Positions 63,790 to 64,000 of a DNA stretch of 64,000 bases are shown in pieces. Below the pieces are notes generated by a model. That model had not been told where the DNA came from, made no database searches, and was given only the letters and a program-made list of their open reading frames with translations. This stretch comes from Escherichia coli (lineage in GTDB: Bacteria; Pseudomonadota; Gammaproteobacteria; Enterobacterales; Enterobacteriaceae), in assembly GCF_003334765.1 (NCBI RefSeq), contig NZ_QOWT01000011.1; one strand, written 5' to 3'. A program made the translations under genes and the position numbers. Position 1 is the first letter of the stretch. Each line of letters begins with the position of its first letter.

Positions 63790-64000
63790 GATATTAATCT
63801 TTCGTTTTGTTTCAGTTGATACTGCGTCATGGTGAGATAAAAATAAAACGAAAGATAATAGTTTTCTGATCTGATTCACAAAAGAAACATAATGAAAGTC
63901 ACTGAAACGAGAGTAGCTTGCGTCAATGGGCAAGGTGGGCTTGCATTTGCTTAATAGAAAGGCGTTAATAGGCAAAACGAAATGAAACGAAAGTTTTACG
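63790..64000. promoter_or_regulatory. Divergent kbaZ/agaR control region with AgaR (DeoR-type) operator repeats; truncated by window edge
   Basis: Repeated units ctttcgttttgtttcag, aaaacgaaagataa, aaaagaaacataatgaaagtcactgaaacgag, aaaacgaaatgaaacgaaagtttt upstream of kbaZ. Confidence 0.45.

Follow-up and report, generated by a model that had tools for sequence, protein, structure and literature searches.

Repeats in the kbaZ-agaR intergenic region of Escherichia coli are very probably operators of the AgaR repressor

Introduction

N-acetylgalactosamine and galactosamine are mucin-derived carbon and nitrogen sources for E. coli in the gut. The operators of the repressor AgaR in the aga regulon of E. 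coli K-12 were reportedly described by Ray and Larson in 2004 (Mol Microbiol 51:813), and the regulon is also said to have been treated by comparative genomics by Leyn et al. in 2012 (J Biol Chem 287:28047). AgaR, an autoregulator of the DeoR family, binds directly at agaZ and agaS and thereby represses them (PMC4694137). The kbaZ promoter (Pz) and the agaS promoter (Ps) are both induced by N-acetylgalactosamine, and the regulon becomes constitutive upon deletion of agaR (PMC3668189). Binding and repression by K-12 AgaR at the kbaZ, agaS and agaR promoters are described in passages of three papers (PMC3668189, PMC4694137 and PMC5018945), which cite Ray and Larson 2004 and Leyn et al.

The locus studied here lies at one end of the window, i.e. 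the whole stretch of 64,000 nucleotides of E. coli DNA that was analysed. Short repeats recur there upstream of a gene taken to be kbaZ, and the DNA ends within the same intergenic region. The question is therefore what these repeats are and which genes they control. According to the original prediction, they form a second array of units found elsewhere in the cluster, agaR should start divergently just past position 64000, and the architecture of the region is hidden by the window edge.

Results

Genes on both sides of the repeats

The gene at 62484-63764 on the minus strand encodes a 426-aa ORF and is annotated as kbaZ (agaZ) in the RefSeq genomes that are 100% identical here, in agreement with the name it had been given; it heads the kbaZ-agaVWEF-agaA operon. 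Many complete E. coli chromosomes match positions 62400-64000 at 100% identity, and the DNA beyond the window was read from these genomes. In NZ_AP019189.1 the annotated order is agaF-agaE-agaW-agaV-kbaZ on the minus strand, then agaR on the plus strand, followed by yhaV-prlF and garD. The expected divergent agaR is indeed present beyond the edge: its ATG falls at window-equivalent position 64013 (+), 13 bp past the window end, and the encoded protein of 269 aa reaches 465 bits, against a cut-off of 260, with the NCBIfam model NF040755 "transcriptional repressor AgaR". With an HTH_DeoR domain at residues 18-74 (E = 3e-21) and a DeoRC domain at residues 89-247 (E = 5e-55), it is classed by its Pfam domains as a DeoR/GlpR-family regulator. 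Its sole PDB match by sequence is the DeoR C-terminal domain (7l6l, E = 2e-12).

The E. coli kbaZ-agaR intergenic region spans 248 bp (63765-64012) with 36% G+C, and the window holds 236 bp of it (63765-64000). The region is therefore truncated, as had been said, by 12 bp; its architecture, however, is not hidden, because the four sites and both predicted promoters described below all lie before 64000, and the 12 bp beyond the window contain only AAAGGACTTACT, the agaR ribosome-binding site.

In the NZ_AP019189.1 annotation, agaF, agaE, agaW and agaV occupy the equivalent of 59400-62483, and agaA was placed by eye at about 58748-59881. The agaW-agaE-agaF-agaA segment is intact in this strain, while K-12 MG1655 retains only agaW and agaA pseudogene remnants after a known deletion. 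Hence, the operators here control a complete pathway.

The repeat array is not an effect of composition

Exact copies of TTTCGTTT/AAACGAAA were found at 63800 (+), 63846 (-), 63975 (-) and 63985 (-), together with TTTCATTT at 63980 (-). In the 64-kb window TTTCGTTT occurs 10 times against 3.7 ± 1.9 expected from shuffles, and seven of these ten copies fall in the two aga promoter regions, of which 63800-63992 contains four and the agaA-agaS spacer (58453-58695) three. Meanwhile, TTTCRTTT gave 16 matches in the window against 7.7 expected. As a local control, the 248-bp intergenic region alone was shuffled 5000 times with preservation of dinucleotides. Four copies of TTTCGTTT were observed in this region against 0.057 expected, an enrichment of about 70-fold, and none of the 5000 shuffles reached four. 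The repeat array is thus real, and a composition effect is ruled out.

A 24-bp AgaR operator consensus, WRMMTTTCRTTTYRTTTYNYTTKK, was reportedly given by Ray and Larson in 2004. All 24-mer scans were scored against this consensus. At up to three mismatches it has seven matches in the 64-kb window against 0.09 expected, two of them perfect. The kbaZ-agaR and agaA-agaS intergenic regions hold three matches each. The remaining one, at 1915-1938 (-) with 3 mismatches, is the sole match outside the aga cluster; it coincides with codons 1-8 of mlaD (MQTKKNEI) and was rejected as a chance match in Lys/Asn-rich coding sequence. With four mismatches allowed, operator O2 is added around an exact AAACGAAAG at 63846, and the intergenic region then holds five matches against 0.037 expected, a count reached in 0 of 5000 local shuffles. 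One and the same 24-bp consensus therefore fits both arrays, and the four repeat clusters noticed between kbaZ and agaR reappear in the motif scan as 24-mers. We refer to them as O1 to O4.

Each operator is a run of (C/R)TTTC pentamers in one direction, one every 5 bp and about 20-24 bp in total; in O4, for instance, the sequence runs CTTTC GTTTC ATTTC GTTTT. Conservation is best for the units CTTTC and RTTTC, which stand 10 bp apart in the pattern CTTTC-R-TT-N2-R-TTT-Y, and this 10-bp spacing places them on one face of the helix. AgaR sites are termed "palindromes" in one review-style sentence (PMC4694137). Contrary to this term, each site here is a direct repeat, and only the O1/O2 pair is inverted. 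Meanwhile, the AgaR binding sequence from the kbaZ promoter curated in Table S3 of PMC8667592, CTTTCGTTTCATTTTCGTTT, is the same as O4 apart from one extra T.

The control region is conserved across Enterobacterales

The AgaR protein was used to scan one genome per bacterial species, which yielded 80 loci with 81-99% protein identity. They come from Escherichia, Citrobacter, Klebsiella, Raoultella, Enterobacter, Kluyvera, Lelliottia and Salmonella enterica subsp. arizonae/diarizonae, and also from Yersinia, Serratia, Buttiauxella, Cedecea, Mixta, Pantoea and others. A kbaZ homologue lies upstream of agaR on the opposite strand in all 80. In 73 loci both genes are complete from residue 1, and the intergenic regions of these were aligned with the window. 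The gap between the divergent genes measures 240-269 bp in the 73 loci, and 247-251 bp in 68 of them.

In this alignment the four operators are 87-96% identical to the window; when the CRP-like site and the predicted promoter elements are included the range is 84-96%, whereas the spacers fall to 28-51%. To judge from the unconserved stretches, neutral divergence among these genera is close to saturation; it follows that the conserved blocks are under selection. The operator motif is moreover confined to this position: at up to three mismatches, WRMMTTTCRTTTYRTTTYNYTTKK gave 189 matches in the intergenic regions of the 73 loci (18 kb) and a single one in 391 kb of their flanks.

Element map of the intergenic region

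Starting from kbaZ, the leader with its Shine-Dalgarno sequence (GGAGAGGAAA, 63765-63775, minus strand) has a mean identity of 0.96 over 73 species and is followed by a spacer at 63776-63797 (0.51). O1 (AATCTTTCGTTTTGTTTCAGTTGA) occupies 63796-63819 on the plus strand with 3 mismatches, and its conserved part is 63798-63819 (0.87). A predicted kbaZ -10 hexamer, CAGTAT, lies at 63819-63824 (-), its six positions each being 70-99% conserved. O2, with the core CTTTCGTTTTATTTT, lies at 63834-63857 (-); it has 4 mismatches in spite of its exact AAACGAAAG core, and its conserved part is 63838-63860 (0.92). In about a quarter of the species the best 24-mer register at O2 jumps by 5 bp; a real shift of the site was rejected, and the jump is a scoring artefact of units that repeat every 5 bp. 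O1 is inverted relative to O2, O3 and O4, and together with O2 it forms a 16-nt inverted repeat of 94% (63797-63812 and 63841-63856, with 28 nt between the arms).

The next element is a CRP-like site, TCTGAtctgatTCACA, at 63865-63880 (centre 63872.5), with 1 mismatch to TGTGA-N6-TCACA, a mean identity of 0.84 and 1.71 bits. O3 (TGACTTTCATTATGTTTCTTTTGT, 63878-63901, minus strand, 1 mismatch) abuts it on the upstream side; the conserved part of O3, 63878-63898, has a mean identity of 0.96, the joint highest of the region with the kbaZ Shine-Dalgarno block. The intergenic region is identical to that of K-12 MG1655 at 247 of 248 positions, and the sole difference, at window position 63860 (A here, G in K-12), falls between O2 and the CRP site. 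A window position in this region converts to the K-12 coordinate 3,278,914 + (63764 - window position).

A spacer of variable sequence and near-constant length fills 63902-63936. It was measured as 63899-63936, the first three bases of which overlap the O3 24-mer, and showed a mean identity of only 0.28. A partial unit within it, GAAACGAGAG at 63904-63913, is not conserved in the other species of the 73-species alignment. On the agaR side, a predicted -35 hexamer TTGCAT at 63941-63946 (+) stands in a conserved block at 63937-63946 (0.89), and a further conserved block, TAAnAGAAAGGCGTTAATA, at 63952-63970 (+, 0.87) contains a lone GAAAG (63957-61) and a predicted agaR -10 hexamer GTTAAT (63964-69). 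O4 (AAACTTTCGTTTCATTTCGTTTTG) matches the consensus with 0 mismatches at 63973-63996 (-), its conserved part being 63973-63993 (0.92), and a spacer at 63994-64012 (0.49) closes the region.

Predicted promoters and the CRP-like site

From its -10 hexamer CAGTAT (63824-63819, minus strand), transcription of kbaZ would probably start near 63812. Thus, the centre of the CRP-like site would stand at about -61, a class I position; relative to the same predicted start, O1 would extend from about +1 to +16, O2 would cover the -35 region and O3 would lie at about -66 to -89. It should be pointed out that the CRP pattern at 1 mismatch occurs twice in the window against 2.0 expected, so that the pattern alone is not enriched, that the copy at 63865-63880 is nevertheless conserved, and that the -61 position rests on the predicted start. 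Genomic SELEX recovered kbaZ, which counts among the known targets of cAMP-CRP (PMC3105977).

As judged from conserved sequence, agaR probably has a promoter made up of TTGCAT (63941-46), a 17-bp spacer and GTTAAT (63964-69), with a start near 63976. The predicted -10 hexamer is without the usual A at position 2. As position 63976 falls inside O4, the autorepression of agaR would be explained. A simple promoter scan found neither the kbaZ nor the agaR promoter proposed here. Its two weak plus-strand candidates, 63816-63844 and 63832-63859, were rejected because their -35 hexamers are poorly conserved.

A matching array upstream of agaS

The agaA-agaS spacer (58398-58747) holds the other three operator matches, at 58449-472, 58527-550 and 58686-709, with 0, 1 and 3 mismatches to WRMMTTTCRTTTYRTTTYNYTTKK, respectively. 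An inverted pair is found here as well, with arms at 58453-58466 and 58533-58546, in the same layout as O1/O2 at kbaZ. In the same spacer, at about 58590-58670, GC-rich palindromes resembling a REP/BIME element were noticed by eye only.

Discussion

The repeats are very probably AgaR operators within a 248-bp control region common to the divergent kbaZ (agaZ) and agaR promoters. Another protein might be thought to bind them, for instance an OmpR-type response regulator acting on GAAACAT units, or phased T-tracts might bend the DNA with AgaR being incidental. O3 does contain GAAACATAAT, which loosely resembles OmpR-type half-sites, and T-tracts placed every 5-10 bp can curve DNA. Such a reading is nonetheless quite improbable: within the 64-kb window the motif is restricted to aga-regulon promoters, and over the 73 species nearly all its matches (189 to 1) fall next to agaR. 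The conservation is also base-specific, as at the C of CTTTC, and goes beyond mere A+T richness. The curated AgaR site, which is O4 with one T added, points to AgaR itself, and so do PMC4694137, PMC5018945 and PMC3668189, in which these promoters are assigned to AgaR, and the reports of AgaR binding at them and of lost regulation on agaR deletion (PMC4694137, PMC3668189).

An action at the RNA level, with a structured leader or attenuator in the mRNA of kbaZ or agaR, is less probable still. It could draw on the 16-nt inverted repeat of O1/O2 and on a short hairpin, GCAAGgtgggCTTGC, at 63930-63944. Against it, no Rfam family was hit at threshold, the two best matches reaching 24.8 and 21 bits where the gathering scores are 70 and 55; with a kbaZ start near 63812, O2 would not be co-transcribed with O1; and conservation tracks the sequence of each unit, with no compensatory changes seen. 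The terminator-like hairpin was itself rejected as a functional element, as the unconserved spacer contains its left arm. That the array is a functionless product of an A+T-rich intergenic region could be argued from the 36% G+C, at which short A/T-rich words recur easily, but this account has next to no credibility. Composition-matched shuffles never reached the observed counts in 5000 trials, and the sites are 87-96% conserved across genera against neighbouring spacers down to 28%. A chance origin of the repeats is excluded.

According to the literature, AgaR represses the kbaZ, agaS and agaR promoters through these repeats, and a mechanism can be proposed. The inverted O1 and O2 would bracket the predicted kbaZ core promoter, and O4 would cover the predicted agaR start. 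Without inducer, oligomeric AgaR would occupy the sites, probably in a cooperative manner; other DeoR/GlpR repressors make it likely that AgaR forms an oligomer and binds cooperatively to several sites. Its occupancy would shut off kbaZ-agaVWEFA and limit the synthesis of AgaR itself, and the array upstream of agaS would do likewise for agaS-kbaY-agaBCDI. Growth on N-acetylgalactosamine or galactosamine, by which these promoters are known to be induced, would then release AgaR, most likely via a phosphorylated intermediate of the pathway as the presumed inducer; to judge by other DeoR/GlpR repressors, the releasing signal is likely one of its sugar phosphates. Finally, cAMP-CRP would activate the kbaZ promoter.

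Two features of the footprint might extend this scheme. In 69 of 74 sequences O3 and O4 stand 95-98 bp apart, and this kept length suggests a spacing constraint, possibly for cooperative binding or looping. Because the distance is kept while the 38-bp spacer at 63899-63936 shows only 28% identity, a contact between AgaR molecules at O3 and O4 is hinted at; we tentatively consider that they might touch across the gap of about 95 bp, as a DNA loop or a cooperative bridge, with the kbaZ and agaR promoters repressed as one unit, a proposal that we regard as somewhat doubtful. Strict helical phasing between the operators was rejected, as species differ by 3-4 bp in the O3-O4 distance; the data speak for a constraint on length. 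The other feature is the lone conserved GAAAG (63957-61) between the two predicted agaR promoter hexamers, at a distance of 32 bp from the same unit in O4. It may be an extra AgaR contact or half-site and, like the spacer, hints at cooperative or looped repression of both promoters together. Both the length-kept O3-O4 spacer and the lone GAAAG may be absent from the literature.

The presence of AgaR operators and a CRP site between kbaZ and agaR is already known, and the finding is real but ordinary. Because the K-12 locus is identical at 247 of 248 positions and its control by AgaR and CRP has been published, the present work is a rediscovery of a characterised cis-regulatory region. Set against the K-12 AgaR operators, this is one and the same locus, with shared flanking genes and repeat units; it differs in the intact agaW-agaE-agaF-agaA segment, which gives this strain a functional pathway, and otherwise in nothing of substance.

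DeoR, at the deo operon, and GlpR, at glpD, glpTQ-glpACB and glpFK, act through multi-operator control regions whose operators are described as palindromes. The AgaR region resembles these systems in its repressor with HTH_DeoR and DeoRC domains, in several operators over and around the promoters, in a probable CRP site for positive control and in a divergent promoter region. In contrast to their palindromic operators, AgaR sites are direct runs of pentamers, and inverted symmetry exists only between sites (O1/O2). AgaR is also only distantly related to DeoR, as indicated by 7l6l being its sole PDB match. The "AgaR" of Streptococcus shares the name and the control of N-acetylgalactosamine/galactosamine catabolism, but belongs to the unrelated GntR family with a UTRA domain, uses other operators and is hence a functional analogue (PMC4694137, PMC5018945).

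The main value of this analysis is the correct annotation of a known N-acetylgalactosamine/galactosamine switch, and little beyond that. It illustrates that a true operator array is recognisable from sequence alone. Meanwhile, the cross-species footprint supplies a clean map of four operators, a CRP-like site, both predicted promoters and a length-kept spacer, which could be used to test whether a DeoR-family regulator of direct repeats represses cooperatively or through loops.

As a side observation, the 248-bp region was found at 5829 places in 5322 records; therefore, an extra copy exists in several hundred E. coli genomes. In NZ_OZ547091.1 (212614-224858) a decayed second copy, 94.7% identical, is carried on a 262-kb replicon. 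It comprises garD as a pseudogene, agaR with a frameshift and a short kbaZ-like gene, and adjoins alpha-galactosidase and MalY/PatB genes.
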